This document shows positions 7,651 to 58,689 of a stretch of 64,000 bases of DNA, piece by piece. The position numbers and the translations under genes were made by a program. A model generated the notes under the pieces. That model ran no database searches. It was not told the origin of the DNA and saw only the letters and a program-made list of their open reading frames with translations. The stretch covers positions 9,354-73,353 of the forward strand of contig JAKEFG010000015.1 of NCBI GenBank assembly GCA_022616195.1, in the 5' to 3' direction. Source of the DNA: Candidatus Wolfebacteria bacterium (GTDB taxonomy: Bacteria; Patescibacteriota; Minisyncoccia; Phycocordibacterales; EsbW-18). The first letter of the stretch is position 1. Each line of letters opens with the position of its first letter.

Positions 7651-8330
7651 AGACGGAACGGAAAACACGATGGGCTGACTGGACGTTGACAAGCAAATAC
7701 ACGATAGAGAATCAAAGTCTCCGCTGACACGCGATGCGTACAGGCGGAGCAAGCAGGTAATTAAGTAAGGTATCAATGCTTGACATTGATACGCGGTTTT
7801 TAGATTTCCTAATAGGAGATCTGATAAGGGCGCACGGTGGATGCCTTGGCTCTAAACGGCGATGAAGGACGCGGCATGGCGGCGATATGCTTCGGGGAGG
7901 TGCCTAGCAACCTACGATCCGGAGATTTCCGAATGGGGAAACCCTGCGAGGTCAACCCTCGTGATCCTCTGATTCATCAGAGGAGGCACACCCGGGGAAG
8001 TGAAACATCTCAGTACCCGGAGGAACAGAGACTAATAAGTATTTCCTGAGTAGCGGCGAGCGAAATGGAAGAAGCCCAAACTCTGTGAAGCGAAAGCTAT
8101 GCAGAGGGTAGTAGGGTAACAACGTCATCTTTGATGAGGAGAGTTATAAAATGTTCTTCGTTAGCTGAATTCGTTGGAAAGCGAAGCCCGAGAGGGTAAT
8201 AGCCCCGTAATGCGAAAACGGAATGTCTCTCTTGTTGTTATTCCTGAGTACCCCGAGACATGAATAGCTCGGGGGAATCTGCCGGTACTAACCGGTAAGG
8301 CTAAATACGTTTAGAGACCGATAGTGAACC

Positions 8331-8361
<31 letters not shown>

Positions 8362-9636
8362 GGAGAGGGGGGTGAAATAGACCTGAAACCGTGCGTCTAC
8401 AAGGAGTCGAAGTGTCTTTTGGCACAACGGCGTGCCTATTGAAGAATGAGCCAACGAGTGTACGTGTACTGCTCGGCTAAGTCCTTTGTCGGACGAAGCC
8501 ACAGGGAAACCGAGTGTTAACAGCGCGAACTATAACTTTTTGCCGTGCGTGTGTTTCCTAGGACGCATGGTAAAGAGTTATCTGTAGTACATGTACGACC
8601 CGAAGCCGGGTGATCTACCCATGACCAGGGTGAACCTTACCGAAAGGTGGGGGGAGGCCCGAACCGATACGCGGTACAAAACGTTCGGATGAGTTGTGGG
8701 TCGGAGTGAAAAGCTAATCGAACCCGGTAATAGCTGGTTCTCTCCGAAATAGCTTTAGGGCTAGCGTTATGTGTTTCCCTCGGGGGTAGAGCACTGGAAG
8801 GAGTAGACAGGGCGAAAGCTCGCTTCTCCTATCAAACTCCGAATACCGAGGGTTAGAGCATAGCAGTTAGACTATGGGCGCTAAGGTCCATTGGTCAAAA
8901 GGGAAACAGCCCAGACCTCAAGCTAAGGTCCCTAAATCGACACTAAGTGCACGTAAGGAGGTGCAATTTCTCTGACACTGAGGAGGTTGGCTTAGAAGCA
9001 GCCATCCTTTAAAGAAAGCGTAACAGCTCACTCACTTAGAGATTGTGCGCCGCAAATAATCGGGGCTAAGTGTCGTACCGACGCTGAGGATTGTATCCCG
9101 TTTCGACGGGGTGCAGTGGTAGGAGAGCATTTCTATTGCTATGAAGCCCCTGTGTAAACCGGGGTGGAGCGATGGGAAGAGAGAATGTTGGCACAAGTAA
9201 CCGCAAGGCAGGTGCGATCCCTGCCCGCCGAAATCCCAAGGTTTCCTTGGCAATGTCAATCAGCCAAGGGTTAGTCGGTCCTAAGGAGATGGCGAAAGCC
9301 GTATCCGATGGACACACGGTTAATATTCCGTGACTTCCTGTTCATTCGATGGAGTAACGGAGGGTTGTACACGTTGCACATTATTGGATTTGTGTGCATG
9401 CTTTGAGGGAGTCAGTTAGGCAAATCCGGCTGACGCCACCCCGAGAAGTGTGCGGAATTCCGCTACGGCGGGAGAACAACGTGGAGCACGCTCCCGAGAA
9501 AAACTTCTAAGGTTCATGTCCAGGAAACCGTACCGCAAACCGACACAGGTGGGAAGGTCGAGAAGACCAAGGCGAACGGGTGAGAGATCCTCAAGGAACT
9601 CGGCAAAAAAGCGGCCGTAAGTTCGCAATAAGGCCT

Positions 9637-10028
9637 CCCAGCACTAGATTAAGTTCTTAAATGTAAACAGTAAGGAGAAAAAGCATGACAAATGAGCAGT
9701 ACCTAAAGGCAATCGGTGAAATGAAAAAAATAATACCGGCAGAAATTTTACCGGAGAGGATTGACACAAGCCGTAAATTCTCTGAAACTTCTGTAGAACA
9801 GAAGTTAAAACATTCTCTATATTTGTTAGAGAATGTCCCGACTTTTCTCGAGGTAGGAAAACGAGAAAAATCATCAAGACATTTAGCTTTTGCTCAGGCA
9901 ATCCTTTGGTCTTTGGACATGTTGGCAATCGACCAATTAATGGATTTCAACAGAAGATGATCATAATCGGGTGGTGATGATTATTTTTCACGCTCCCCGA
10001 ATTTTTAAGAATTTAATCTAGTGCTGGG
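9637..10028 (+). other. IVS-like insertion in a variable 23S helix (approx. E. coli helix 63 region), closed by a ~25-bp stem with one G-U; ~340 nt inserted
   Basis: cccagcactagattaagttcttaaa ... tttaagaatttaatctagtgctggg are reverse complements; flanking sequence continues into GACTGTTTACCAAAAACACAG (E. coli ~1770-1785). Confidence 0.65.
9685..9960 (+). CDS. 91-aa protein encoded inside the 23S IVS-like insertion (hypothetical, all-helical)
   Basis: ATG preceded by TAAGGAG 7 nt upstream; terminator-like hairpin plus T-run after the stop (~9955-9990). Confidence 0.55.
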   Translation: MTNEQYLKAIGEMKKIIPAEILPERIDTSRKFSETSVEQKLKHSLYLLENVPTFLEVGKREKSSRHLAFAQAILWSLDMLAIDQLMDFNRR

Positions 10029-10185
10029 CGCAGCGAAAGTATCCCTGGCGACTGTTTACCAAAAACACAGCTCCCTGCGAACTCGTAAGAGGATGTATAG
10101 GGGGTGACGCCTGACCAATGCCAGAAGGTCAAACGCGGAGGGTACATGTGACTTCGGTTATATGTGCTGGACTGCGTAAGCCCTG

Positions 10186-10224
<39 letters not shown>

Positions 10225-10883
10225 CAATTCCTTGTCTGGTAAGTTCAGACGTGCACGAATGGCGTAACGACTGGGGAACTGTCTCGAGGATTCGCCCGGT
10301 GAAAATGCAATGGGGGTGAAGATGCCCTCTACCTGCAGTTAGACGAAAAGACCCCAGGAGCTTTACTGTAACTTGATAGTGGGGGTACGTAGTATATGCG
10401 TAGCATAGGTGGGAGACGTTGAAGCGAAGGTCTCGGCTTTCGTAGAGTCGCCAGTGAAATACCACTCTTATATAGCGTGCTTTCTAACCTCGACGGCAAA
10501 AACGGCGGGGGACAGTATCTGGTAGGCAGTTTTAGTGGGGCGCTATCCTCCTAAAAAGTAACGGAGGAGCCTATTACGGTCAGCTAGGCGCGAATGGAAA
10601 CCGTGCCGATAGTGTAATGGCAGAAGCTGGCCTGACTGCAAGGGGTACATCCCGAGCAGGCGCGAAAGCGGAGCATAGTGAACCGAGAGTTCCCTTTAGA
10701 CGGGGCTCGAGATTAACGGATAAAAGTTACCCTGGGGATAACAGGCTGGTCCTGCCTAAGAGTCCATATCGACGGCAGGGTTCGGCACCTCGATGTCGGC
10801 TCACCGTATCCTGGCGCTGGAGAAGGTGCCAAGGGTTTGGCTGTTCGCCAATTAAAACGGTACGCGAGCTGGGTTCAGACCGT

Positions 10884-11360
10884 TCTGGGCATGAATCATA
10901 AGATATGAATCATGAATAGAGCAGTCTGAATCCGCTCATAACGACACAATCGTTTTTTCGTCTATGAAATAAGTCCCGATTTTGATGTATCAAAATCGAG
11001 GATCCCGACCAGAGCGTCGGGAATAGAATCAACCTAATCACGGCGGTCATGTGTAGTAATACGCATGTATCAAGCTGACCCCGATTTTGATGTATCAAAT
11101 CGAGGATCCCGACCAGAGCGTCGGGACTAATATCGGTGAATTTCTAGCTTCTAGGTAAGAAGAAGGAGGACACCGAGGGAATGGTTCGACTTTGCTCACC
11201 ACGAGCAAATAGAATTCGGCCCGTAGAGACTGAACGTCAGCGTTCCTTACTCATGTTTTGTGTTATACGCGACATGTGTTGGGAATATGCTACAGTCCGA
11301 TCCCGCCGGTAACGGCGGTGTGGCTAGACGCTAGGAGCTAGCGGCTAGTTGCTACAGTTG
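10884..11360 (+). mobile_element. ORF-less group-I-like intron inserted exactly after U2593 (E. coli numbering) of 23S
   Basis: exon reads GGGUUCAGACCGU | CGUGAGACAGG, matching E. coli G2581-U2593 | C2594-G2603; 5' exon ends in U and insert ends in G, as for group I introns; longest ORF <65 aa. Confidence 0.6.
10975..11126 (+). repeat. two direct copies (10975-11022 and 11080-11126) of a 48-bp element, each made of two hairpins (cgattttgat-gta-atcaaaatcg and tcccgac-cagagc-gtcggga), separated by 57 nt, inside the L2593 intron
   Basis: copies identical except one A in the A-run. Confidence 0.85.
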
Positions 11361-11423: not shown

Positions 11424-12251
11424 AAGTAATTGCTACTCTTCGGAGAGATCCGAAGTGACAATGTGGCTTATAACGGTGAAGCCTTCATATGATTACTGTC
11501 CGAGGATTGTGAATAGCTATTGGTCCAGCTATGGTATAATTCGCTTGCGGACCGTAATCCGCTGCAAGGTAATACCGTGGGAAGTCGATCTCAAACACAC
11601 ACAGCGTATATAGCGGGTTTTCTTGATGGTGACGGCAGTTTGATGCTGCAGATCAAAAAACGATCTGATACAAAACGAGGTATTCGTTTTATGGCAACAA
11701 TCTGTCTGTATCAAGATACTCGCCATGAGAGGCCGCTGTGCTGGATGCGTGAAGTTTTAGGCATTGGATATCTATCTCGACGCCGTGACGGCATTACAGA
11801 GTTACGTATCAATGGCTTTAGTCAGTGCAAAACAATTCTTGAACAACTAGTACCGTATATACGGTTTAAGAAGGTTCAAGTGAGTGCATTGCTCGAGGCA
11901 TGTACGGTACTGTGTACGACGCCGTTTTCAAAGCTCACGAAACAACAGCAGAAGTATTTGGTTGACCGTATTGTGATCATTCAACATGAAAACTATACAA
12001 CCAAGTCAAAAAAGCGTAGGGAAGAGCTGTATGCATGTTTGGATTTGACCCCGTAACGACTTGTTCATGTAGTTGCCACTACATGGCGGACTTGCTGATG
12101 TATTGAATCAGGAATGTATTCCTGACAATCTCAGTGGGTAACATGCCGCCACCCTCGTCCTCCATCTCATGGGGAACGGGTGAAGATATAGTCTATGCTC
12201 CTGGAAACAGGGGAGTAATCTTGTTTTTCAAAAGTGAAACAAGAGATACAT
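11424..12251 (+). mobile_element. 828-nt intron in the sarcin-ricin loop of 23S (after U2656), carrying a LAGLIDADG homing-endonuclease gene
   Basis: flanking exons join to GCUGCUCCUAGU|ACGAGAGGACCGGAGUGGAC, identical to the E. coli SRL sequence; 5' exon ends U and insert ends G. Confidence 0.75.
11520..12056 (+). CDS. single-motif LAGLIDADG homing endonuclease, I-CreI-like
   Basis: YIAGFLDGDGS motif; ~170 aa; GIGYLSRRRDG and LEQLVPYIRFKKVQVSALLEAC segments parallel I-CreI GVGYVRDRGS / FLTQLQPFLKLKQKQANLVLKII; ORF-track start is TTG 11520; in-frame GTG 11577 lies after a perfect TGgTATAAT (11531-11539). Confidence 0.85.
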   Translation: MVQLWYNSLADRNPLQGNTVGSRSQTHTAYIAGFLDGDGSLMLQIKKRSDTKRGIRFMATICLYQDTRHERPLCWMREVLGIGYLSRRRDGITELRINGFSQCKTILEQLVPYIRFKKVQVSALLEACTVLCTTPFSKLTKQQQKYLVDRIVIIQHENYTTKSKKRREELYACLDLTP

Positions 12252-12545: not shown

Positions 12546-12656
12546 TGTGTTGGTGGTTCGACGCTGTGGAGACACCCGTTCTCATTCCGAACACGGCAGT
12601 TAAGCACAGTAGTGGCGATGGTACTCGCAAGGGGAGAGTAGCTAGCCGCCAACACA
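12546..12656 (+). rRNA. rrf: 5S ribosomal RNA
   Basis: CCGUUCUCAUUCCGAACACGG..GUAGUGGCGAUGGUACUCGCAAGGGGAGAGUAGCUAGCCGCC; ends pair as helix I. Confidence 0.85.
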
Positions 12657-32878: not shown

Positions 32879-34780
32879 TTACTTACTCGTGAACCGGTAC
32901 ACGCCGTCCCAACGCTCGGGGGGCTGCTGTTTGAATTCCCGCGCCCGCTCAAGAAGGAGCGCGGACGGACCGTCTGGTTCTGTAGCGAGCGCCTCGTTGA
33001 ATGCAGCGATTGCTCTGTCCCAGTCGCCCCGCTCGTACGCCGCCCGTCCGCGCTCATAGTGTTCAAAAAGTGTTTGGTGTGCGGGTGTCACGCCGCGCGC
33101 GATGAGCTCATAGAGGGCGCGCGGCTCGCTTTTGCCTTTGACCGCGACGCGGTCAAGGAGACGTGTGGGAAGGTCGGGTAGGGCGGCAATTGCGTCGCGG
33201 GTGTTTTCTCCAATAAGGATAGGGACGCCGTACGCTTTGGTGAGCCCCTCGAGGCGCGACGAGAAGTTCACTTCGTCGCCGACGATGGTGTAGTTGAAAC
33301 GTTTCGCGGAGCCCATGTTACCCACGACGACCTCGCCCGTCGAGATGCCGATGCCGATGCGGATTTCCGGCTTACCGTCTTTCTTCCATGTTTTGTTGAG
33401 CATATCAAGTATGGCAATCATGGCGAGCGCTCCGCGGCAGGCGTGCTCCGCGTGCGTGGGGTCGTCAATCGGTGCCCCCCAGAACGCCATAATCGCATCC
33501 CCGATGTATTTATCGACGAGTCCGCGATGTTCCAAAATAGTGTCCGTCATTGCCGAGAGATATTCGTTGAGGCGCTCCGTGAGTTCTTCGGGCGAGAGCG
33601 ACTCCGAGAGTGTGGTGAATCCGCGGATGTCGGAGAAGAGAATGGAGAGCGTTTTTCGTTTGCCCCCGAGCGAGAGCTTTGAAGGGTCGCGGACGAGTTC
33701 GTTCACAACCTCGGGTGCAAGGTAGTACTGGAACGTGGTGCGGATGAATTGTTTTTCGCGCGCCTCGGTTGCGTATTGGTACACGACGCCTCCCCCTGCG
33801 GCGAGGATGAACGCGAGCTCAAGATAGAGCACGGGAGTGACGAGATACACGCCGAAGAGCGCCGCCGCCACGAGGTAGATGAGGCCGACGCCGAGAGCGA
33901 ACAGAACGATGAGCGGCAGGGTTTTTCGGATGAATGCCGCGAGAAGCGTTGCGAGAAATGCGGCGAGGGCGATGCCAAGGACACCCCACGGGCGCGGCAA
34001 ATCGCGGAAGCGGCTCGGCGATTCAAGTGTCGCGAGCGCGTTCGCCTGAAACTCAACGCCCGGCATGAGCCCCACGGGCGTTTCAACGCTGTCTTTGAGG
34101 TCGGGCGCGGTGGCGCCGATGAGCACCGTTTTGTGAGCGAAAACGTCTTCGGGTACCGTACCCTCGAGCACGTCTATAAGCGAAATGGTCGGGAACGTTT
34201 CGGCAGGCCCCCGCCAATCAATTCGTGCGGTTTCGGGAATTACCGCAGTTTTTCCCGCAAGCGCTTCCGCGAAGCTCGGCCTACCGAGCGCCATGAGACG
34301 CACAGCGCCGTCCGCGTCGAGGGAGACATTCACCGCCCCGAGGGAAACGTTCTCTCCCGTGAGGGAAGGGAGCGGCCCGAAGCTGTTTCCGGTGCGCGGG
34401 TCTATAAAGAGTGGCAGGACGACGCGCCCCGGAAACGTCCGGAGCGCCTCCGCAAGCCGGTTATCGTCAAATGCGCCCACTCGCGACGGCTCCGCGAAAT
34501 TAACGTCAATGCCGACGACCTCGGCCCTACGGAGGCGCGCGATGGCGTCGGCAAACACGGCGCGCGGCCACGGCCACTGACCGACTGCGCGCAAACTTCT
34601 GTCGTCAATCGCGATAATGAGAATGTCTCGCGGCGGGTCTTTTCGTATAACAAACCGGTCAAGGATATTTTCCTCGGCGGTATCAAGCGCTCCGGAGAGG
34701 TAGAGCGCTCCGGCGAGAAGGGCGGCGATGAGCGCGACGAGCGCGAGACCGATGTGCCGACGGTGGAGAAAAACACCCAT
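32879..34780 (-). CDS. CHASE2 sensor - class III adenylate/guanylate cyclase (with C-terminal TPR-like segment)
   Basis: CHASE2 region (ILIIAIDDRSLRAVGQWPWPRAVFADAIARL), TM bundle, cyclase core LSILFSDIRGFTTLSE..KYIGDAIMAFWGAP..GISTGEVVVGNMGS. Confidence 0.88.
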   Translation of the reverse strand: MGVFLHRRHIGLALVALIAALLAGALYLSGALDTAEENILDRFVIRKDPPRDILIIAIDDRSLRAVGQWPWPRAVFADAIARLRRAEVVGIDVNFAEPSRVGAFDDNRLAEALRTFPGRVVLPLFIDPRTGNSFGPLPSLTGENVSLGAVNVSLDADGAVRLMALGRPSFAEALAGKTAVIPETARIDWRGPAETFPTISLIDVLEGTVPEDVFAHKTVLIGATAPDLKDSVETPVGLMPGVEFQANALATLESPSRFRDLPRPWGVLGIALAAFLATLLAAFIRKTLPLIVLFALGVGLIYLVAAALFGVYLVTPVLYLELAFILAAGGGVVYQYATEAREKQFIRTTFQYYLAPEVVNELVRDPSKLSLGGKRKTLSILFSDIRGFTTLSESLSPEELTERLNEYLSAMTDTILEHRGLVDKYIGDAIMAFWGAPIDDPTHAEHACRGALAMIAILDMLNKTWKKDGKPEIRIGIGISTGEVVVGNMGSAKRFNYTIVGDEVNFSSRLEGLTKAYGVPILIGENTRDAIAALPDLPTRLLDRVAVKGKSEPRALYELIARGVTPAHQTLFEHYERGRAAYERGDWDRAIAAFNEALATEPDGPSALLLERAREFKQQPPERWDGVYRFTSK

Positions 34781-45875: not shown

Positions 45876-46500
45876 GACCATACAACTACTTGTGTCGCTT
45901 GCAGGCGCCGTTGTGGTGCTTGCGGTGATACTTGGATTCCTGCATTATCTACAACGCGCCGACACGTCGCCGGCGGTTGACACTGATACACGTATGGAAA
46001 ACGATGTACAAGCACAACTTCCTCGCGCCGTGCTGAAGACGAGCAAGGGAACGATTGAACTGGAATTGTTTGAAGGGGAAGCACCCGAGACGGTCGGCAA
46101 CTTCATCGCGCTTGCCGAGGACGGTTTTTATGACGGGACGAGATTTCACCGCGTGATACCAAACTTTATGATTCAAGGGGGCGACCCGCTTTCCAAAGAT
46201 GACGACCAGAAAGAACTGTGGGGAACGGGTGGGCCGGGGTACATGTTTTCCGACGAGTTTACGGAGGAACTCTCTAACGTGCGCGGGACGATTGCCATGG
46301 CGAATGCGGGACCTGACACCAACGGGAGCCAGTTTTTCATCAACATTGTCGACAACACGTTCTTAGATGGCAAGCACGCGGTATTCGGGCGCGTCGTCGA
46401 CGGAATGGAGATCGTGGATGCAATTGTAGGTGTACCGACCGAGGGGCCTGACCGCCCCGTTGACGACATCGTGCTTGAGAAAGTGACTATTGAGAGGTAG
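45868..46500 (+). CDS. cyclophilin-type peptidyl-prolyl cis-trans isomerase, N-terminally anchored
   Basis: FHRVIPNFMIQGGDP..GTIAMANAGPDTNGSQFFI..HAVFGRVVDGMEIV. Confidence 0.9.
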   Translation: MSKTIQLLVSLAGAVVVLAVILGFLHYLQRADTSPAVDTDTRMENDVQAQLPRAVLKTSKGTIELELFEGEAPETVGNFIALAEDGFYDGTRFHRVIPNFMIQGGDPLSKDDDQKELWGTGGPGYMFSDEFTEELSNVRGTIAMANAGPDTNGSQFFINIVDNTFLDGKHAVFGRVVDGMEIVDAIVGVPTEGPDRPVDDIVLEKVTIER

Positions 46501-47371
46501 GTTCGTTTCGCCGAAGGAAGCTCTCGTAGTCCATTTCATGTTTCCCTTCGGGGATGACTTTCTTGATGGTGAGCTTGCCGTCACGATAGTTTGCGTCGGT
46601 GATTTTAACGCGTACTTTTTTGCCGTTCTTCTCGGCAAAAAAGTACGCCTTGGGCCATGCATCATATGCCTGTATTGTGAGAAAGTTTTGATACGGGTTG
46701 TCGTTGAGGTCAATGTGTGCATCTTCTTTTTTAATAAGTTTGCAATATGTTGCTTCGTTGTGGTCTTGCTGCACCGCCGCAATTTCACCCGCAACCCATC
46801 TGGGTATGGTGTCGGCAAGCAGTTTGCCCCCGGTGTGAGCCAGTATTTTTGCTAATGTACTGGCCCGCAACGGCCACTCCTCATTTTTAATTTTTACTTT
46901 TTCATTTTGTACGACTGGCCCATGGTCCATCTCCTCGTCGATTTGCATGATGGTAACACCGACGTTACGGTCGTCACTGAGAATCTGTGTCTCCACAGGT
47001 GACGGTCCGCGGTATTTCGGCAGAAGCGATGGGTGTACATTCAAAACACCGTGTTTCGGGACGTCAGTGACCGTCCGTGGAATGATTTTGCCGTAGGCGG
47101 CAACGATAAACAACTCTAAGTCATACGTCTTAAGTTTTGAGAGAAAGCCAGGGTCGTTCAGTTTTTTGGGTTGAAGTGTGGAAATGCCGTGTATGTCTGC
47201 CCACACTTTGACCGGTGGCGGGGTAAGCTTCAAGCCGCGCCCTTTCGACCTGTCGGGCGCGGTTACAATGATGGCGGGTAGCAAGCCTGCACGCTCAAGT
47301 TCGTCAAGAACGATGACGGCAAACTCCGGCGTTCCAAAAAATGCAAAGGGGATGTTTTCTGAAGCTTTCAT
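46487..47371 (-). CDS. fmt: methionyl-tRNA formyltransferase
   Basis: FFGTPEFA, SLLPKYRGPSP, formyl-transferase fold; start at MKASEN. Confidence 0.9.
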   Translation of the reverse strand: MKASENIPFAFFGTPEFAVIVLDELERAGLLPAIIVTAPDRSKGRGLKLTPPPVKVWADIHGISTLQPKKLNDPGFLSKLKTYDLELFIVAAYGKIIPRTVTDVPKHGVLNVHPSLLPKYRGPSPVETQILSDDRNVGVTIMQIDEEMDHGPVVQNEKVKIKNEEWPLRASTLAKILAHTGGKLLADTIPRWVAGEIAAVQQDHNEATYCKLIKKEDAHIDLNDNPYQNFLTIQAYDAWPKAYFFAEKNGKKVRVKITDANYRDGKLTIKKVIPEGKHEMDYESFLRRNEPTSQ

Positions 47372-47443
47372 GATACATTCGGTTGTCTGAAACATTCTAA
47401 TATTCTATAGAATATTAGAATGTTTCAGCGTGGTTACGATGTC

Positions 47444-47965
47444 TTATGTCTCTGTTTTTTCAGAAAGTTTATAAACATCTTTTGCCTTATCGGTGTAGAG
47501 GACGCCGTTGAGGTGATCTATCTCATGCTGGAAGATTTGCGCGAGAAGCCCCGCTCCTTTGAGCGTGAAGGGCTTACCTGTCGCGTCGTATGCCTCAAGG
47601 GTTGCCTCAAGGGCCCGCTCCACCCTCCCCTGAAGCCCCTCAACGGAAAGACACCCTTCTTCAACCCACGCCGTTTCCTTCGAAGTATTAGTTAGTCGGG
47701 GATTGATAAAGACCAAGTCGGGATGCTTCTCGACTATCTCTCCTTTGTTGTCTCGCCGTGCGAAGAGCGTACCTGATACGATGAACATCCGGAGTGACTC
47801 TCCGATTTGCGGAGCGGCGAGCGCAACGCCGTGATGCTCACGAGCAAGCACTTTGGACATTTGTTCGGCAAGCGCCGAGATTCGCTCTCCACCAAGTTCA
47901 CCGGTCTCAATTTCGGCGGCTCTTTTCCGAAGAACCGGGTTATCTTTCTGGATAATGTCAGTCAT
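47444..47965 (-). CDS. def: peptide deformylase
   Basis: GVALAAPQIG, EGCLS, QHEIDHL motifs; start at MTDIIQ. Confidence 0.9.
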   Translation of the reverse strand: MTDIIQKDNPVLRKRAAEIETGELGGERISALAEQMSKVLAREHHGVALAAPQIGESLRMFIVSGTLFARRDNKGEIVEKHPDLVFINPRLTNTSKETAWVEEGCLSVEGLQGRVERALEATLEAYDATGKPFTLKGAGLLAQIFQHEIDHLNGVLYTDKAKDVYKLSEKTET

Positions 47966-47990
47966 GGGGAAAGTATACAAAGTACACGAG

Positions 47991-48033
47991 CTTAAAACAA
48001 AAAGCCCGCGCCGTGGAAGGGTCCAGCGCGGGG
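47991..48033 (-). terminator. minus-strand intrinsic-terminator-like element (GC hairpin cccgcgc..gcgcggg then CTTTTTGTTTTAAG on the minus strand), ~30 nt upstream of the def start codon
   Basis: read from sequence; possible attenuator. Confidence 0.45.
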
Positions 48034-48118
48034 GGGGAGGGCTCAGACCCCGGGCGGTGTGCGCCATCGCCAGTTGCGGAGTCTGAACCAGCTCACATTT
48101 TAAATCCGCTATTTTTAT

Positions 48119-48145
48119 TTGTCAACACACTCGTTGTGGTATAAC
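48119..48145 (+). promoter_or_regulatory. TTGTCA-15nt-TGgTATAAC promoter; -10 ends 6 nt before the mnmA ATG (leaderless)
   Basis: extended -10 with TG. Confidence 0.5.
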
Positions 48146-48151
48146 AAACCA

Positions 48152-49240
48152 ATGGGAAAGGGGCAAAAAAGGATTTTCGTTGCCATGAGCGGAGGGGTTG
48201 ATTCTTCAGTTGCGGCAGCTTTGCTCAAAGAATCCGGGCATGAGGTAACCGGAGTGTTCATCAAGGGCTGGTATCCGGAGTGGCTCCCGTGCAATTGGCG
48301 CGAAGAGCGCCGTGACGCGATGCGGGTTGCAACACGGCTCAGCATCCCGTTTGAGACGTTTGACTGCGAGGACGCGTACAAAAAGAATGTTGCCGATTAC
48401 ATGATTGCCGAATACCAAACAGGGCGGACGCCTAATCCCGATGTTGTATGCAACAAAACCATCAAGTTCGGCGCATTTTTCGACGAAGCCCTGCGGTGCG
48501 GTGCCAACATGATTGCCACAGGGCATTATGCCCGACTTCGTCAGGCAAAATCAAAAAATAAAAATCAAAAAGTAAAAATCGAACTGTTGACTGGGGTGGA
48601 CGAGAACAAAGACCAGAGTTATTTTCTCTGGGCGCTCTCACAGAAGGTTCTGGGACGGACGTTTTTCCCGGTGGGTGATTACACGAAGCCGGAGGTGCGG
48701 ACAATTGCAAGACGGTTCGGACTTCCAACTGCGGAGAAGAAAGAAAGCCAGGGGCTTTGTTTCCTTGGTCATGTGGATGTGCACGAGTTTCTCGGTCACT
48801 ATACAACGATTGTACAGGGTGATGTTCTGGATACATCGGGCCGCGTTATTGGGAAGCACAAAGGAGCGATTGTGTACACACTTGGACAACGCCACGGATT
48901 TACGATTACTTCGCAGCGTTCCGACGAAGGCAAGCATTACGTTGTGGCGAAGGACATGAGGCGCAACACAATAACCGTATCGGAACGTTTACAGGAAGAA
49001 CACGCGGTTTCCGAGGTAGCGCTTGCGGAAGCGAACTGGATTGGCGCGGAGCCGCGCGTGGGCATGTCGTATATGGCGCGCTTTCGGTACCGGCAGAAGC
49101 TCCAAAGGTGCACGATTATCGAGGCGGCTGCCGCAGGTGCGCGCATTCGTTTTGACACGGTACAGACGGCAGTGTCGCCCGGTCAATCATTGGTACTTTA
49201 TGACGGCGAGGTGTGCCTTGGCGGCGGGGTCATTGTCTAG
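48152..49240 (+). CDS. mnmA: tRNA-specific 2-thiouridylase
   Basis: PP-loop SGGVDSS, catalytic Cys pattern, C-terminal barrel; contains a low-complexity KSKNKNQKVK insert. Confidence 0.92.
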   Translation: MGKGQKRIFVAMSGGVDSSVAAALLKESGHEVTGVFIKGWYPEWLPCNWREERRDAMRVATRLSIPFETFDCEDAYKKNVADYMIAEYQTGRTPNPDVVCNKTIKFGAFFDEALRCGANMIATGHYARLRQAKSKNKNQKVKIELLTGVDENKDQSYFLWALSQKVLGRTFFPVGDYTKPEVRTIARRFGLPTAEKKESQGLCFLGHVDVHEFLGHYTTIVQGDVLDTSGRVIGKHKGAIVYTLGQRHGFTITSQRSDEGKHYVVAKDMRRNTITVSERLQEEHAVSEVALAEANWIGAEPRVGMSYMARFRYRQKLQRCTIIEAAAAGARIRFDTVQTAVSPGQSLVLYDGEVCLGGGVIV

Positions 49241-49331: not shown

Positions 49332-49793
49332 ATGACCGTGAAACAGATCATCATTCTTATTATTGTCGTCATTCTGCTCGGTCTTGTTGTGTGGGGCGGA
49401 TTTGTCTTTGTCGACAGAAACTCGCTGGTTACTGATGAGTTTACAGCTCCGACAACGACGGACCGCAATCTTGACGGCGACGACACGCGGCAGGAAAAAC
49501 TCACCATCACGCACGAGTACTCGGGGGGCGTACATCACTATGCCGGGGTGGTGACGGTACCCACGCCATGCCACGCGCTCACCACTGATGCCACGGTTGC
49601 CGAATCGTTCCCGGAGCAAATCCGCATAGTGCTGACAACCACGGCTCCGGCACCGGACACTGTCTGCATACAGGTGCTTGACCAGGAATCGTTTGAAGTG
49701 ACGGCGCGGGCAAGTGCGGGCGCGCTCCTCGTCGGCGTGACGCTTGACGGCATTTCGCTACCGTTTGAGATTTTTGAGGAAGCGAAGGGATAA
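49332..49793 (+). CDS. hypothetical N-terminally anchored protein
   Basis: 153 aa, one TM then a Thr-rich extracytoplasmic domain. Confidence 0.55.
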   Translation: MTVKQIIILIIVVILLGLVVWGGFVFVDRNSLVTDEFTAPTTTDRNLDGDDTRQEKLTITHEYSGGVHHYAGVVTVPTPCHALTTDATVAESFPEQIRIVLTTTAPAPDTVCIQVLDQESFEVTARASAGALLVGVTLDGISLPFEIFEEAKG

Positions 49794-49804
49794 CGATACG
49801 CACA

Positions 49805-50644
49805 ATGGTACTTGTCACTAAGGCAAACGGAGAGGAGGAGCTGTTTCAACCCGATAAGTTAAGGCGTTCGCTTGAACGTGCCGGTGCCCACGCGGAAACG
49901 GTTGCGCGAATCGTGACGCGCGTTGAAGGCGAACTGCGCGACGGCATGACTACGGCGGAAATTTACCGACACGCCTTTGAGCTGCTCAAACGTGAAGAAG
50001 ATAAACCTATTGCCGCGCGGTACTCACTCCGGCGCGCCATCATGGAACTTGGCCCCTCGGGGTTTCCGTTTGAGTCGTTTCTTGCTGAGCTGTTCCGTCA
50101 AGAGGGATACCGCGCCACGACGAACGTGTATCTCTCTGGAAAATGCACCGAACATGAGATTGATGTGCTTGCGGAAAATGACGCGAGGGTTGTTGCGGTA
50201 GAAGCGAAATTTCACAACGAATCAGGATACAAGACCGACCTGAAGGGTGTACTCTATGTCAACGCGCGTGCGGGAGACCTTAAAGAAACACATTTTGACG
50301 GCAAGGAGACTTCCGGCAAGGAGGGGGCGGTGTGGCTTATCACCAATACGAAGTTTACCCACAACGCGATTCGCTACGCAGAATGTGCAGGGCTTACTAT
50401 TATCGGGTGGACCTATCCACACCACGGCAACCTGCACGACCTCATAGACGCGTCGGGACTGCACCCAGTTTCCTGTCTCACGACGCTCTCCCAGGCACAG
50501 AAAAATCTCCTGCTTGAGCGGCGTATCGTGCTCTGCCGATTTCTCATGGAGCATCCGGAGACTCTTCAAGAAATCGGGCTCTCCGCCGCCAAAACCGACA
50601 CCGTTATTCAAGAAGCCCGCGGGTTGTGCGCTCCTCGAAGGTGA
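49805..50644 (+). CDS. ATP-cone domain fused to a restriction-endonuclease-like (Mrr/PD-(D/E)XK) domain
   Basis: N-terminal VTKANGEEELFQPDKLRRSLERAG..ETVARIV..DGMTTAEIY (ATP-cone); then IDVLAENDARVVAVEAKF (D..ExK). Confidence 0.7.
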   Translation: MVLVTKANGEEELFQPDKLRRSLERAGAHAETVARIVTRVEGELRDGMTTAEIYRHAFELLKREEDKPIAARYSLRRAIMELGPSGFPFESFLAELFRQEGYRATTNVYLSGKCTEHEIDVLAENDARVVAVEAKFHNESGYKTDLKGVLYVNARAGDLKETHFDGKETSGKEGAVWLITNTKFTHNAIRYAECAGLTIIGWTYPHHGNLHDLIDASGLHPVSCLTTLSQAQKNLLLERRIVLCRFLMEHPETLQEIGLSAAKTDTVIQEARGLCAPRR

Positions 50645-50658
50645 GGTAGAATCAGGGT

Positions 50659-51312
50659 ATGAACAACAAACACCGGGGAGAGCGGACATCGTCCAACAAT
50701 CAGCCGTATCGGGACAACAACCGGAACAATGTGTCGGCGCCAACACTCTTTCCGAAACCGAATATGCAAAACGGATCATCGCGCGCCACGTGGCGTATAG
50801 TCATTGGAACACTTATTGGTCTCATAGTCGGGTTTGTTGCCGGAGCGCTCATATTCCGAGGTGTCACATCCGTGACCGATACGACGGACACAGACAACAT
50901 AGATGGGGATGGAAACGAAGCCTCGGGGAGTGTGGTTGTGACACCACAGACAGGTGGGGATGCCGATCCAAGCGGGAGAGTCATTCTTCCGGAGAGCGGG
51001 GCGACCAGTGCGGATGTGGTGCTCGTTAAGGACCAACCTGCGGGGGAATCGGTATTTCTTTCCCGTGTGGGGCTTTCGGTGCCGGGTTGGGTAGCTATTC
51101 AGGAAGACAGTGACGGAGAGCCGGGCAACATTCTCGGTGCTCAGCGTTTTGACGCCGGGGTATACCAAGGGACGGTAAAATTGCTACGTCAGACGGAGGT
51201 GGGGGAGCGGTACCATGCAACGCTGTGGCGGGACAACGGCGACAAACTCTTCAATTTTGAAACGGACACATTACTCACGAGTGCAGAGACGATGATGTTT
51301 GAAGTGTACTAA
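50659..51312 (+). CDS. hypothetical membrane-anchored protein (disordered N-term, one TM, beta-rich C-domain)
   Basis: 217-aa ORF, TM WRIVIGTLIGLIVGFVAGALIF. Confidence 0.55.
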   Translation: MNNKHRGERTSSNNQPYRDNNRNNVSAPTLFPKPNMQNGSSRATWRIVIGTLIGLIVGFVAGALIFRGVTSVTDTTDTDNIDGDGNEASGSVVVTPQTGGDADPSGRVILPESGATSADVVLVKDQPAGESVFLSRVGLSVPGWVAIQEDSDGEPGNILGAQRFDAGVYQGTVKLLRQTEVGERYHATLWRDNGDKLFNFETDTLLTSAETMMFEVY

Positions 51313-51317
51313 GGTCA

Positions 51318-51608
51318 GTGAATAGTTTGTCGTCGGTGATGAGTAGCGTGGCAGGAAATATGCAGAAACTGAATGTACAAGGAATCGGCGTGGCGCTCGG
51401 CATCACGTGGGCGCTCGGGTGCTTACTCATCGGACTCTCGGCGCTTGCGTTTGGCTACGGTGCAGAATTTGTTGCGGCGGTCGGTACGTTTTATATCGGC
51501 TACGCGCCGACACTTCTCGGCGTACTCATCGGCACGGTCTGGGGATTTGTGGATGCGTATATCGGCGGTGTCATTTTTGTGTGGCTGTATAATAAATTTA
51601 CGAAATAA
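51318..51608 (+). CDS. small 3-TM membrane protein (hypothetical)
   Basis: ORF-track start is GTG 51318; in-frame ATG at 51339. Confidence 0.5.
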   Translation: MNSLSSVMSSVAGNMQKLNVQGIGVALGITWALGCLLIGLSALAFGYGAEFVAAVGTFYIGYAPTLLGVLIGTVWGFVDAYIGGVIFVWLYNKFTK

Positions 51609-52073
51609 ATGGAGGCTCTCGGCACATTTGATATATCCGTAGTTGTACAGTTTCTTATCGCGCTTCTCTTGGGCGCGCTCTTGGGGACGGAGCGGACGCT
51701 TGCCCACAAGAAAGCGGGCATGCGTACCTACGGGCTGGTGTCTATGGGCTCGTGCCTTTTTGTAGTGACCTCGCTTATTTTCTTTGTAACGTTTGGCGCG
51801 GCGGCAATGCCGGAGCTGATGCGGGTGATTGCGGGTATCATCACCGGAGTCGGGTTTCTTGGGACCGGAGTAATTATCTTTAAGGACACGGAGCTTACCG
51901 GTGGGCTCACGACCGCGGCGGGACTCTGGGTTGCCGCTGGCATCGGCGTTGCGGTGGGGTTCAAACTCTATGCCGTCGCGGCGCTTGCAACGGTACTCAC
52001 ACTTCTCACCTTCACTATCTTTTGGTATTTGGAAAATCGGGTGAAGGACATTACGAACGGGCACGAGGGCTAG
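51609..52073 (+). CDS. MgtC/SapB-family membrane protein
   Basis: LGALLGTERTLAHKKAGMRTYGLVSMGSCLF motif. Confidence 0.85.
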   Translation: MEALGTFDISVVVQFLIALLLGALLGTERTLAHKKAGMRTYGLVSMGSCLFVVTSLIFFVTFGAAAMPELMRVIAGIITGVGFLGTGVIIFKDTELTGGLTTAAGLWVAAGIGVAVGFKLYAVAALATVLTLLTFTIFWYLENRVKDITNGHEG

Positions 52074-52075
52074 GA

Positions 52076-52108
52076 AAGATTTGCCATAGGCAATCTTTGA
52101 TTTTTTCT
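52076..52108 (+). terminator. intrinsic terminator aaagatttgcc-ata-ggcaatcttt + TTTTTTCTC
   Basis: 10-bp stem and T6 immediately after the MgtC stop. Confidence 0.6.
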
Positions 52109-52178
52109 CTTCTACCTGCTATATTGGAACCTGGAGTTAGGCGGTCTTTCCACACAACCAACTTCTATGGAGGCAGGT

Positions 52179-52649
52179 ATGCGAGTACTCAAACTGCACC
52201 CGGCCTCTAGAGAGGCGCTCAGGATTCTGCGCCGGCAGGAGGGGGGTATTTCGACCATACATCTTCACACCGCGCTTCTGCGGAGGAGATTCATCCCTCT
52301 CCATTTCATACAGCAGCGCAGTCTGCTAGAGAGGGCAGATTTCATTAGAGTCAAGGCTGCTCAAATCTCTGACAGAGATGTCGATGGTGGTCGCGGTGAC
52401 GTAGGCACCGCGCGTGACGAACGGGAGGTGCTCTTTCCCGGAGGGCGGCTTCTGCAGCTGTCGGGGGAAGTACCCAGGGGGCTCCGACTGCCGCCGGGAA
52501 CATCGGAGCCGCTCCTTCCGCTCGAGCCACCTAAGGGAGCAAGAGTCCGCTCTTCTCGCGAGGCGCTTCGACCGGTAGCGGTACGGGGGAGGCGGCCGCG
52601 GGGAATAGCGAAGCTTCTCCGCGAGTTGGAAGCAAAAAAAGGGGAGTGA
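52179..52649 (+). CDS. questionable Arg-rich hypothetical ORF within a G+C-rich segment, bracketed by a TGcTATATT -10 (52117-52125), a GGAGG site and a downstream terminator-like hairpin (~52659-52700)
   Basis: 156-aa ORF, very basic, no recognisable domain; could instead be non-coding. Confidence 0.3.
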   Translation: MRVLKLHPASREALRILRRQEGGISTIHLHTALLRRRFIPLHFIQQRSLLERADFIRVKAAQISDRDVDGGRGDVGTARDEREVLFPGGRLLQLSGEVPRGLRLPPGTSEPLLPLEPPKGARVRSSREALRPVAVRGRRPRGIAKLLRELEAKKGE

Positions 52650-52719
52650 CGCGTGAACGGTCGCCGGCAGTTCTACTGCATTTCGGCGACCCTCTTTTTC
52701 TTTGTGCTATACTGGCGCG

Positions 52720-53571
52720 ATGGCTGACTACGGTTACTACAAACGCACCAGGGGGCTTTTTGACCCTCTTCGGCATGGCTTAGGTCACGCGTTGCCCAAG
52801 GAGCCCTTCAGACTCTCACGCTCAAAAATTGACCTTTTTTGGGAGTGCCCGCGCTGTTTTTATCTTGATAGGCGGCTTGGCGTGCCGCGCCCGTCACTGC
52901 CCGGCTTTACCCTGAACATTGCCGTTGACCACTTGCTGAAAAAAGAGTTTGATACGCATCGGGCGAAGGGGGACCCGCACCCCTTGATGACCGAGTACAA
53001 GATTGACGCGGTGCCGTTCGCGCACAAAAAACTGGACGTCTGGCGCAACAATTTCAAGGGGGTTGAGCGTTTGCACACGCCGACCAATTTTCTGGTCTTC
53101 GGCGCTATTGACGATGTGTGGGTCAATCCAAAAGGAGAGCTCCACGTTGTTGATTATAAAGCCACCAGCAAGGCGGAGAAACCGGACCTTGAGGGATTCT
53201 GGCAGCAGGTATACAAGCGGCAGATGGAAGTGTACCAGTGGCTCATGCGCGGCAACGGTTTTGAGGTGTCTGACACGGGCTACTTTGTGTATGTCAACGG
53301 GCGCAAGGACGCAGAGGCGTTTGACGGTAAGCTTGAGTTTGACGTGGACATCATTCCGTACACAGGCGACGACGGTTGGGTGGAGCGAACACTTCTAGAT
53401 GCTCAAAAAGCACTTGAGGCGGATGTGATTCCGGAGGCAGGCCAACACTGCGAGTACTGTCCGTATCGACAGTATGCGGGTGAATCAATCAGGGAGACAC
53501 TCGCTGTCCATACGAGAGGAGAAAAACAACATAAACAAAAAAAGGGGGGACAGAAAGAAACACCATTTTGA
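52720..53571 (+). CDS. Cas4-like PD-(D/E)XK nuclease with four-cysteine cluster (DUF83/AddB-type)
   Basis: N-terminal FWECPRCFYLDRRLGV, central DDVWVNPKGELHVVDYKATS (D..DYK), C-terminal CEYCPY; ATG 6 nt after TGcTATACT. Confidence 0.75.
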   Translation: MADYGYYKRTRGLFDPLRHGLGHALPKEPFRLSRSKIDLFWECPRCFYLDRRLGVPRPSLPGFTLNIAVDHLLKKEFDTHRAKGDPHPLMTEYKIDAVPFAHKKLDVWRNNFKGVERLHTPTNFLVFGAIDDVWVNPKGELHVVDYKATSKAEKPDLEGFWQQVYKRQMEVYQWLMRGNGFEVSDTGYFVYVNGRKDAEAFDGKLEFDVDIIPYTGDDGWVERTLLDAQKALEADVIPEAGQHCEYCPYRQYAGESIRETLAVHTRGEKQHKQKKGGQKETPF

Positions 53572-53576
53572 GTATT

Positions 53577-53837
53577 ATGAAGAATCAAAACTTTAAAGAA
53601 AGGGTGTTGAAGGTCGTGGCGCGGATTAAGCGAGGGAAGGTTCTCACATACAAACAAGTGGCGACGCGTGCTGGGAACCCGAGGGCGGCGCGCGTAGTGG
53701 GGAATATTATGAAGCAAAACTATGACCCGAAGATACCGTGCCACCGGGTGATACGGAGTGATGGGGCTATGGGTGGCTACAACCGCGGTGGTGCAACCAA
53801 GAAACGGGCGCTTCTTAAAAAAGAAGGTGCGGCTTAA
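53577..53837 (+). CDS. MGMT-family (O6-alkylguanine-DNA alkyltransferase DNA-binding/active-site domain) protein
   Basis: LTYKQVATRAGNPRAARVVGNIM..IPCHRVIRSDGAMGGY (PCHRV active-site motif); ORF-track start 53568 is TTG. Confidence 0.8.
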   Translation: MKNQNFKERVLKVVARIKRGKVLTYKQVATRAGNPRAARVVGNIMKQNYDPKIPCHRVIRSDGAMGGYNRGGATKKRALLKKEGAA

Positions 53838-58149: not shown

Positions 58150-58689
58150 ATGGCGTTTTCAGATCCACAGCGAAATATTGAACAACTCGGACTTTCGGAG
58201 GGTATGCGGGTGGCTGATTTTGGTGCGGGGTCGGGATTCTACACAGTTGCTGCGTCGGGGAAGGTCGGAATGGACGGACGAGTGTATGCAATTGATATTC
58301 AATCCGGGCTTCTCGGCCGCATACAGGACACTGTACACGGCGTACAAACGAGTAACATTGAGGTATTACAGGGGGATCTTGAGCACGAGGGCGGATCAAA
58401 ACTCAGGGACGGGACCGCTGATGTGGTGCTTGCTGCCAACATACTCTTCCAGGTGACTCGCAAGGAAGTCTTTCTTAAAGAAGCGTGGCGTGTTCTGAAA
58501 TCAGGCGGTCGGCTCCTACTGGTTGATTGGAGGGGTGCGTTTGGTGGTGTTGGTCCGCGTCAACGCGATGTGGTGGCAGAAACAGCCGCTGAGCAACTGC
58601 TCAGGAATGCTGGATTTAGTATAGAAAGACGTATTCAAGCGGGGGAACACCATTATGGGATAGTCGCGCGCAGGCCAAAAGGTGCATAA
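58150..58689 (+). CDS. class I SAM-dependent methyltransferase
   Basis: VADFGAGSGFY (motif I), acidic motif II, LKSGGRLLLVDW. Confidence 0.85.
   Translation: MAFSDPQRNIEQLGLSEGMRVADFGAGSGFYTVAASGKVGMDGRVYAIDIQSGLLGRIQDTVHGVQTSNIEVLQGDLEHEGGSKLRDGTADVVLAANILFQVTRKEVFLKEAWRVLKSGGRLLLVDWRGAFGGVGPRQRDVVAETAAEQLLRNAGFSIERRIQAGEHHYGIVARRPKGA

Follow-up and report, generated by a model that had tools for sequence, protein, structure and literature searches.

The AF1548 family joins an ATP-cone to a predicted Mrr-type nuclease in Paceibacteria and Archaea

Among the known systems closest to the protein considered here are the ATP-cone of NrdR and the archaeal protein AF1548. In Escherichia coli NrdR the nucleotide is contacted by K53 and E59 of the lid and by K65 of helix 1, a hydrophobic pocket is formed by V51, F61, L66 and I108 with S54 and S105 at its rim, and the gatekeeper of the outer site is Y131, together with R72; the NrdR cone acts by switching the oligomeric state (bioRxiv 10.1101/2025.03.28.645925). 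The cone of the ribonucleotide reductases likewise works through oligomerisation. AF1548 of Archaeoglobus fulgidus (PDB 1Y88) was solved by structural genomics in 2004 as a 'protein of unknown function' and is the namesake of the Pfam family AF1548-like_C (PF22357). Here we analyse a gene of the AF1548 family on a stretch of 64,000 nucleotides from a Candidatus Wolfebacteria bacterium (contig JAKEFG010000015.1; 'the window' below means this whole stretch). The gene and its parts are the following, where HhH stands for helix-hairpin-helix and aa for amino acids:

49805..50644, + strand: gene of the AF1548 family with ATP-cone, PD-(D/E)XK (Mrr_cat) and HhH-like domains (list of open reading frames, Pfam, match to PDB 1Y88)
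49808..50044, + strand: ATP-cone domain, aa 2-80, a beta-hairpin lid (E3-5, E11-13) and four helices
50048..50074, + strand: family-specific linker LGPSGFPFE, aa 82-90, ending in the catalytic E90 (G83, G86, F89 and E90 invariant; L82 and P84 nearly so)
50060..50419, + strand: PD-(D/E)XK nuclease core, aa 86-205
50072-50074, 50162-50164, 50201-50203 and 50207-50209, + strand: catalytic codons of E90, D120, E133 and K135, respectively
50477..50629, + strand: C-terminal helical HhH-like domain, aa ~225-275, with probable non-specific binding of the DNA backbone (predicted)

The open reading frame (ORF) starts with ATG, encodes 279 aa and lies at 49805-50644 of the forward strand, exactly where a preliminary description of this DNA had placed it. 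Its product is 100% identical to a protein of a metagenome-assembled genome (MAG) deposited at NCBI as 'restriction endonuclease [Candidatus Wolfebacteria bacterium]'. A phmmer search of the PDB sequences gave one strong match, 1Y88 (E = 1e-30, aa 92-273), and the nuclease and C-terminal domains are homologous to those of AF1548 over their full length. The AlphaFold2 model, for which a 35-sequence alignment served as input, has a mean predicted local distance difference test score (pLDDT) of 95 and a predicted template-modelling score (pTM) of 0.89. We identify the protein as an AF1548 orthologue with three domains, namely an ATP-cone, a core of the Mrr_cat/AF1548 type and an HhH-like tail. 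The preliminary description had assigned the N-terminal ~90 aa to an ATP-cone and the remainder to an Mrr-type PD-(D/E)XK nuclease, and had proposed Pfam families PF03477 and PF04471 as a check. Both domains score above their gathering cut-offs (ATP-cone at aa 4-78 with 40.6 bits, cut-off 25.8; Mrr_cat at aa 86-198 with 34 bits, cut-off 21), and the catalytic set is intact. This two-domain account is right for both domains but overlooked the third, the C-terminal HhH-like domain, which AF1548-like_C finds with 21.1 bits, just below its cut-off of 23.9, and which aligns to the solved structure 1Y88.

The joining of cone and nuclease might appear unusual, but it is the usual layout of a family that had been catalogued before, native AF1548 also carrying the cone. 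The deposited chain (199 residues) begins past the native N-terminus, so the structure shows no cone; the native A. fulgidus protein (P0121; 265 aa, 99% identical) has Pfam matches to ATP-cone, Mrr_cat and AF1548-like_C, and shares this layout with >100 archaeal relatives. The exact protein was already present in NCBI, the architecture can be looked up in the domain tables of Pfam, and for the nuclease half a crystal structure has existed since 2004. Taken alone, the gene is therefore an ordinary member of a catalogued and functionally unstudied family. Literature searches on the ATP-cone/nuclease fusion or on AF1548 returned no description of either; the matches to the AF1548 name were unrelated GenBank accessions and one metagenomics paper.

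In the cone, a beta-hairpin lid over a four-helix bundle is present, and among solved structures its closest likeness is the cone of NrdR. Conservation was read from 35 sequences (17 patescibacterial and 18 archaeal), which apply to all invariant positions named here: K6 and K18 are invariant in the cone, and E12, F14 and T50 are at least 90% conserved. When a profile of the family cones was aligned to E. coli NrdR with hhalign (E = 7.5e-6), the lid and helix-1 segment was free of gaps, and the residues were paired as V4/V51, K6/K53, E12/E59, F14/F61, K18/K65, L19/L66, R25/R72, T50/S105 and I53/I108 (family/NrdR). The numbering of the NrdR sequence used for this alignment agrees with every residue quoted in 10.1101/2025.03.28.645925. 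Because these contacts align to the NrdR residues without gaps, the inner adenine-nucleotide site of the cone is predicted to be intact, and the conserved ligand contacts support the earlier suggestion of a nuclease that senses nucleotides. When the cone region was searched as a profile against PDB sequences, the search yielded mostly designed helical-repeat proteins, with NrdD the only cones recovered (E ~1e-3); being uninformative for the mapping onto NrdR, it was replaced by hhalign. A guess from residue spacing, that Y73 corresponds to the gatekeeper Tyr131, was ruled out by the pairing of Y73 with F127.

The nuclease core shows the alpha-beta-beta-beta-alpha-beta order of the restriction-endonuclease-like fold. 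The motif IDVLAENDARVVAVEAKF, quoted in the preliminary description, covers residues 119-136, and its D120, E133 and K135 are evident from the DNA itself. Together with E90 these three are invariant; they are also retained throughout the distant bacterial members, one of which has N in place of E90. Since the catalytic set is conserved, also in distant members, the protein is most readily understood as a live nuclease rather than a decayed DNA-binding scaffold, and an intact nuclease gated by adenine nucleotide is plausible from the conserved residues. The linker before the core has the consensus A-R-Y-x-L-[KR] ... LGPSGFPFE with Y73, G83, G86 and F89 invariant, and the same holds for E118, H137, Y151, R155, D158, N181, T182, W202, P205 and P221 further on. 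In comparisons of the AlphaFold2 model with solved structures, the core was closest to AspBHI (10.6), NucS (10.2), FokI (9.8), Can2 (9.4) and MspJI (9.1), with Card1 and Cdn1 also found beside Can2 among the matches, while the C-terminal helices resemble the HhH modules of Pol X (7.4), NusA (7.4) and the N-terminal domain of RAD51D (7.3).

Relatives are numerous. A word-indexed search returned >5,500 of them, the best 120 all being patescibacterial (Paceibacteria) proteins of 267-305 aa with the same domains. HMMER, run over 1.84 billion cluster representatives, recovered 438 clusters (50% identity) at E<=1e-30, a number that rises to 853 with a limit of E<=1e-10; among the best 150, nearly all have a length of 265-300 aa and are matched over their full length in a single stretch. 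Archaeal members occur in Archaeoglobi, Korarchaeota, Bathyarchaeia, Aenigmarchaeota, Nanoarchaeota and Altiarchaeales, and other bacterial members are sporadic (Planctomycetota, Cyclobacteriaceae). No relatives were found in a scan of 2.9 million viral contigs, PHROGs gave no family match but only weak domain-level ones, and an NCBIfam search of the 279-aa protein gave nothing meaningful. The family is compact, core and vertically inherited in Paceibacteria, and is also kept in many Archaea.

The vertical inheritance is seen in the neighbourhood of the gene, which we compared over 51 related loci taken from the species representatives of GTDB; these are at 42-60% identity and come almost without exception from MAGs of Paceibacteria. 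The neighbours in the window are the following:

48119..49240, + strand: mnmA (tRNA 2-thiouridylase), upstream neighbour on the same strand (Pfam)
49332..49793, + strand: small membrane-anchored ORF between mnmA and the nuclease gene, 153 aa, without Pfam match, lineage-specific
50659-51312, 51318-51608 and 51609-52073, + strand: downstream membrane-protein genes, being DUF7282, a 96-aa ORF and MgtC, respectively (Pfam)
52702-53571, + strand: PDDEXK_1 gene (Cas4/RecB-like, 289 aa), recurrent downstream neighbour (Pfam)
53568-53837, + strand: MGMT DNA_binding_1 gene, 89 aa, recurrent downstream neighbour (Pfam)

Immediately upstream and on the same strand, mnmA is found in 45 of the 51 loci, and its junction with the nuclease gene is <=51 nt or overlapping in 27 of the 36 loci where it could be measured. 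Clustering of the flanking ORFs shows a collinear block that begins with leuS, a sigma70_r4/HARE-HTH protein, an unknown membrane protein, YceG/MltG, mnmA and the nuclease gene, and goes on with DUF7282 or MgtC, PDDEXK_1, MGMT DNA_binding_1, a uracil-DNA glycosylase (UDG; family 4 or UNG), PepF and alaS. The position after the nuclease gene is held by DUF7282 in 11/51 loci and by MgtC in 17/51; PDDEXK_1 follows downstream in 31/51 and MGMT DNA_binding_1 in 23/51, often with the UDG gene next. In the window the order is mnmA, the small membrane ORF, the nuclease gene, DUF7282, the 96-aa ORF, MgtC, PDDEXK_1 and MGMT, and equivalents of the small membrane ORF (cluster 17) occur in five loci (L002, L008, L020, L027 and L050) with a common VP(T/S)PCH motif. 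The products of the nuclease gene and of mnmA diverge alike (mean pairwise identity 0.507 and 0.504; Pearson correlation of the distance matrices 0.69; Mantel 0/2000 permutations), and the nuclease gene has the composition of its flanks (GC 0.548; GC at third codon positions, GC3, 0.589), which is native. With its collinear synteny, its co-divergence with mnmA and its native composition, the gene bears the marks of a vertically inherited core gene and not those of a gene of a defence island.

Several details of this region deserve mention on their own. The block is broken in the present genome, where leuS lies at 858-3443, 45 kb upstream, in contrast to the contiguous order from leuS to mnmA in most Paceibacteria loci, and the genes before mnmA are fmt and def, which lie on the opposite strand (46487-48067). 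The PDDEXK_1 gene and the 89-aa gene with only MGMT DNA_binding_1 overlap by 4 nt, the latter retaining a PCHRV motif; this pair, often accompanied by UDG, may form a small repair cluster that is conserved. Between MgtC and PDDEXK_1 are 630 nt (52073-52702) whose sole ORF is Arg-rich and 160 aa long, with no match in Pfam, Rfam or tRNA searches. At its start this gap has a hairpin resembling a terminator (52081-52093) and a site resembling a promoter (52097-52125), but operon boundaries are only suggestive because the scan for promoters and terminators found them no more often than in shuffled sequence.

Elsewhere in the window, the 23S rRNA (7814-10965) exceeds the Rfam model by ~230 nt, and the 5S rRNA (12549-12654) is preceded by a spacer of 1.6 kb, unusually long, that holds an ORF of 178 aa (11520-12056) resembling LAGLIDADG_1 homing endonucleases. 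On the reverse strand, 32879-34780 encodes a 633-aa protein with CHASE2, adenylate/guanylate cyclase and TPR domains, a membrane-sensor cyclase in a reduced genome.

Outside Paceibacteria the family gene is found in various settings:

Ferroglobus (L052, 5958-8721): CorA, family gene and DUF389, with overlapping junctions
Geoglobus: AA_permease/Usp and family gene, with TiaS within a few kb
A. fulgidus (L056, 5193-6035): start of the AF1548 gene overlapping the upstream MscS by 35 nt, with a Tpt1-like PTS_2-RNA gene within a few kb
Archaeoglobi-like MAG: divergent N6_N4_Mtase and RE_MjaI pair upstream, AA_permease/Usp downstream, MscS and DUF432 nearby
Bathyarchaeia (L058, 3463-6873): family gene overlapping the end of an AMP-phosphorylase-like gene, which itself follows an IF-2B family gene
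Three loci of Aenigmarchaeota type: DJ-1/PfpI, Glu_synthase-like, Pyr_redox_2 and alaS in common
Cyclobacteriaceae: metal and cytochrome genes adjoining the family gene
Planctomycetota (L066, 7001-11978; L067, 7001-8637): an identical 280-aa member with differing downstream flanks on two contigs

The archaeal contexts of the three-domain architecture are mostly housekeeping or metabolic. The transport genes of the Archaeoglobi (CorA, MscS, AA_permease/Usp) reflect partly one shared synteny, because the locus of the Archaeoglobi-like MAG combines AA_permease/Usp and MscS. The flank on one Planctomycetota contig is a 1194-aa SNF2/ResIII/NOV_C helicase and on the other consists of unrelated genes, pointing to a variable region in this phylum. 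Moreover, genes for membrane proteins abut family members across unrelated lineages (DUF7282/MgtC, CorA/DUF389 and MscS), and CorA and MgtC are Mg2+-related; this recurrence may be due to chance or shared synteny, and a link to Mg2+ through CorA and MgtC is speculation. No partner gene is conserved across phyla among the Paceibacteria, archaeal, Cyclobacteriaceae and Planctomycetota loci examined, and the protein therefore most likely acts alone, as the word 'stand-alone' in the preliminary description had implied. The methyltransferase at 58150-58689, there set aside as being of a different class, is a generic class I S-adenosylmethionine-dependent methyltransferase and indeed not a DNA methyltransferase.

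For the function of the protein we favour, by a small measure and with the role as the weakest step, a stand-alone housekeeping DNA nuclease that is switched by adenine nucleotide and serves DNA maintenance or turnover. The enzyme would be cytoplasmic and three-domain, a predicted Mg2+-dependent DNA endonuclease whose HhH tail would hold DNA by non-specific binding, and it would need no dedicated partner. Adenine nucleotide (ATP, possibly dATP) bound in the cone would switch the nuclease on or off, most probably through a changed oligomeric state by analogy with the cones of ribonucleotide reductases and NrdR. Because the downstream genes are repair-flavoured and the gene is retained in minimal genomes, its job in this organism would be DNA maintenance (repair or recombination intermediates) rather than phage defence; nucleic-acid turnover coupled to the nucleotide-pool or energy status would be an alternative job. 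A more far-reaching version is tentative and in our judgement rather doubtful: that the family represents the first nuclease class under ATP-cone control, a housekeeping endonuclease licensed or blocked by the ATP/dATP state via cone-driven oligomerisation, and a core gene coupling DNA repair or turnover to nucleotide supply in the minimal genomes of Patescibacteria and DPANN archaea.

Several observations speak against the housekeeping proposal. The Tyr131 gatekeeper of NrdR is unmatched, its position being taken by the variable R77 in the hhalign alignment, so that discrimination between ATP and dATP cannot be deduced, and the patescibacterial cones are without the Arg of the K-R-D-G motif that archaeal members retain. 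The substrate could be DNA or RNA, and the literature searches found no biochemical data on any AF1548-family member. Since no neighbour is shared between phyla, the linkage to mnmA and to the repair-flavoured genes downstream may reflect nothing more than inherited gene order. In some lineages a defence role would fit the variable Planctomycetota flanks with their SNF2/NOV_C neighbour, and equally the restriction-modification pair beside one Archaeoglobi-like member.

Defence, which the preliminary description had proposed together with nucleic-acid surveillance, is the strongest of the other explanations, and we regard it as unlikely. The cone would then sense an infection-induced change in ATP or dATP and release a non-specific Mrr-like nuclease, acting alone in the manner of Type IV restriction or abortive infection. 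Besides the Mrr_cat domain itself, a weak PADLOC-DB v2 match to the Mrr-like nuclease domain of ZorD (E = 1.6e-4, 17.6 bits) is consistent with this, as are the fold and the sensor-nuclease logic shared with the cyclic-oligonucleotide-activated Can2, Card1, Cdn1 and NucC, the sporadic occurrence in Planctomycetota with its variable flanks and helicase, and the restriction-modification pair adjoining one archaeal member. Against it, PADLOC-DB v2 gives no full-length family match, Pfam detects no modified-DNA reader of the Mrr_N type, relatives are absent from the viral contigs and phage families searched, and the archaeal contexts are mostly metabolic or housekeeping. In this lineage, above all, the synteny with mnmA in 45/51 loci, the co-divergence at the same rate and the native GC and GC3 argue for a housekeeping gene, and the search of the neighbourhood for a defence island that had been advised before led to a collinear housekeeping block instead. 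The preliminary description had also held that a conserved neighbourhood of metabolic character would count against a nuclease role; the block is indeed conserved and not a defence island, but it does not speak against a nuclease role, since the genes downstream are repair-flavoured.

Less probable still is nucleic-acid salvage, where the nuclease, in organisms incapable of de novo nucleotide synthesis, would feed the nucleotide pools from imported or surplus DNA or RNA and be stopped by the cone when ATP or dATP is plentiful. The cone is the classic sensor of deoxyribonucleoside triphosphate (dNTP) pools, the family is enriched in Patescibacteria with reduced genomes and in DPANN archaea, and the Bathyarchaeia gene overlaps the AMP-phosphorylase-like gene that follows an IF-2B gene (ribose-1,5-bisphosphate isomerase family), two steps of archaeal AMP/nucleoside salvage. 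This adjacency was dropped as a link to the salvage pathway after it failed to recur in nine other archaeal and bacterial contexts; moreover, nucleotide-prototrophic Archaeoglobi keep the gene too, an endonuclease alone gives no mononucleotides, and no transporter or nucleotidase partner is conserved.

We give little credence to an RNA-processing nuclease working alongside tRNA modification from an mnmA operon. It would account for the position of mnmA directly upstream with short or overlapping junctions (27/36) and for the tRNA-related genes that lie no more than a few kb from two archaeal members (TiaS for Geoglobus, the Tpt1-like PTS_2-RNA for A. fulgidus), and some PD-(D/E)XK enzymes cut RNA; the mnmA linkage, however, is limited to Paceibacteria, the C-terminal domain resembles HhH modules that bind the DNA backbone, and in structure the core comes nearest to DNA endonucleases. 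Finally, a non-catalytic regulator like NrdR, sensing nucleotide and binding DNA with the nuclease fold as mere scaffold, is very improbable: the combination of ATP-cone and DNA-binding module is the NrdR design and the cone is structurally most like that of NrdR, but E90, D120, E133 and K135 are invariant over the bacterial-archaeal divergence, unexpectedly for a decayed active site, and no locus examined shows recurrent linkage to ribonucleotide reductase genes.

Returning to the housekeeping nuclease, the AF1548 family joins a classic ATP/dATP sensor to what appears to be an intact nuclease and is conserved between Archaea and ultra-small Patescibacteria; in the present lineage its gene is a syntenic core gene that evolves as slowly as mnmA. 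If the more far-reaching version is true, the ATP-cone would extend from the control of dNTP synthesis (ribonucleotide reductases, NrdR) to that of DNA breakdown or processing. A cone that gates cutting would give a well-studied allosteric module a new output, and would offer a simple and testable case of DNA processing controlled by the nucleotide pool, in organisms that have to scavenge nucleotides. As the present result warns, proteins described as 'Mrr-like nuclease + sensor' should not be filed automatically as defence genes.

AF1548 is the orthologue of the protein analysed here, yet the cone of AF1548 has K-R-D-G where the Wolfebacteria protein has K-A-N-G, and with the crystallised chain cone-less the arrangement of cone and nuclease is unseen in any structure. 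NrdR belongs to a different family, a transcriptional repressor of ribonucleotide reductase genes whose cone is partnered by a zinc ribbon and which does not cut DNA, and in the reductases with cones (NrdA, NrdD and NrdB of Leeuwenhoekiella) the regulated enzyme is the reductase, whereas here it is a predicted nuclease. Type IV enzymes such as Mrr, MspJI and AspBHI have an Mrr_N winged helix or an SRA-like reader, neither of which was found here by Pfam, an ATP-cone standing in that place; they are island-borne and patchy, in contrast to the core-gene synteny and vertical descent seen here, the Planctomycetota flanks excepted. With no modified-DNA reader and no defence-type genomics, the protein falls outside the Type IV restriction enzymes of Mrr type. 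Can2, Card1, Cdn1, VC1899 and NucC of CRISPR type III and of cyclic-oligonucleotide-based antiphage signalling systems (CBASS) respond to a second messenger, whereas the ligand here is presumably a housekeeping nucleotide; the first four sense through CARF, and in place of CARF or SAVED we find an ATP-cone with no cyclase or CRISPR neighbour, so the likeness is one of logic and not of membership. The archaeal Holliday junction resolvase Hjc, whose name appears in some Joint Genome Institute (JGI) annotations of family members, was rejected at 12.2 bits against a cut-off of 21.1. The repair nucleases NucS/EndoMS and those of the XPF/Mus81/Hef type complete the list of the closest known systems.

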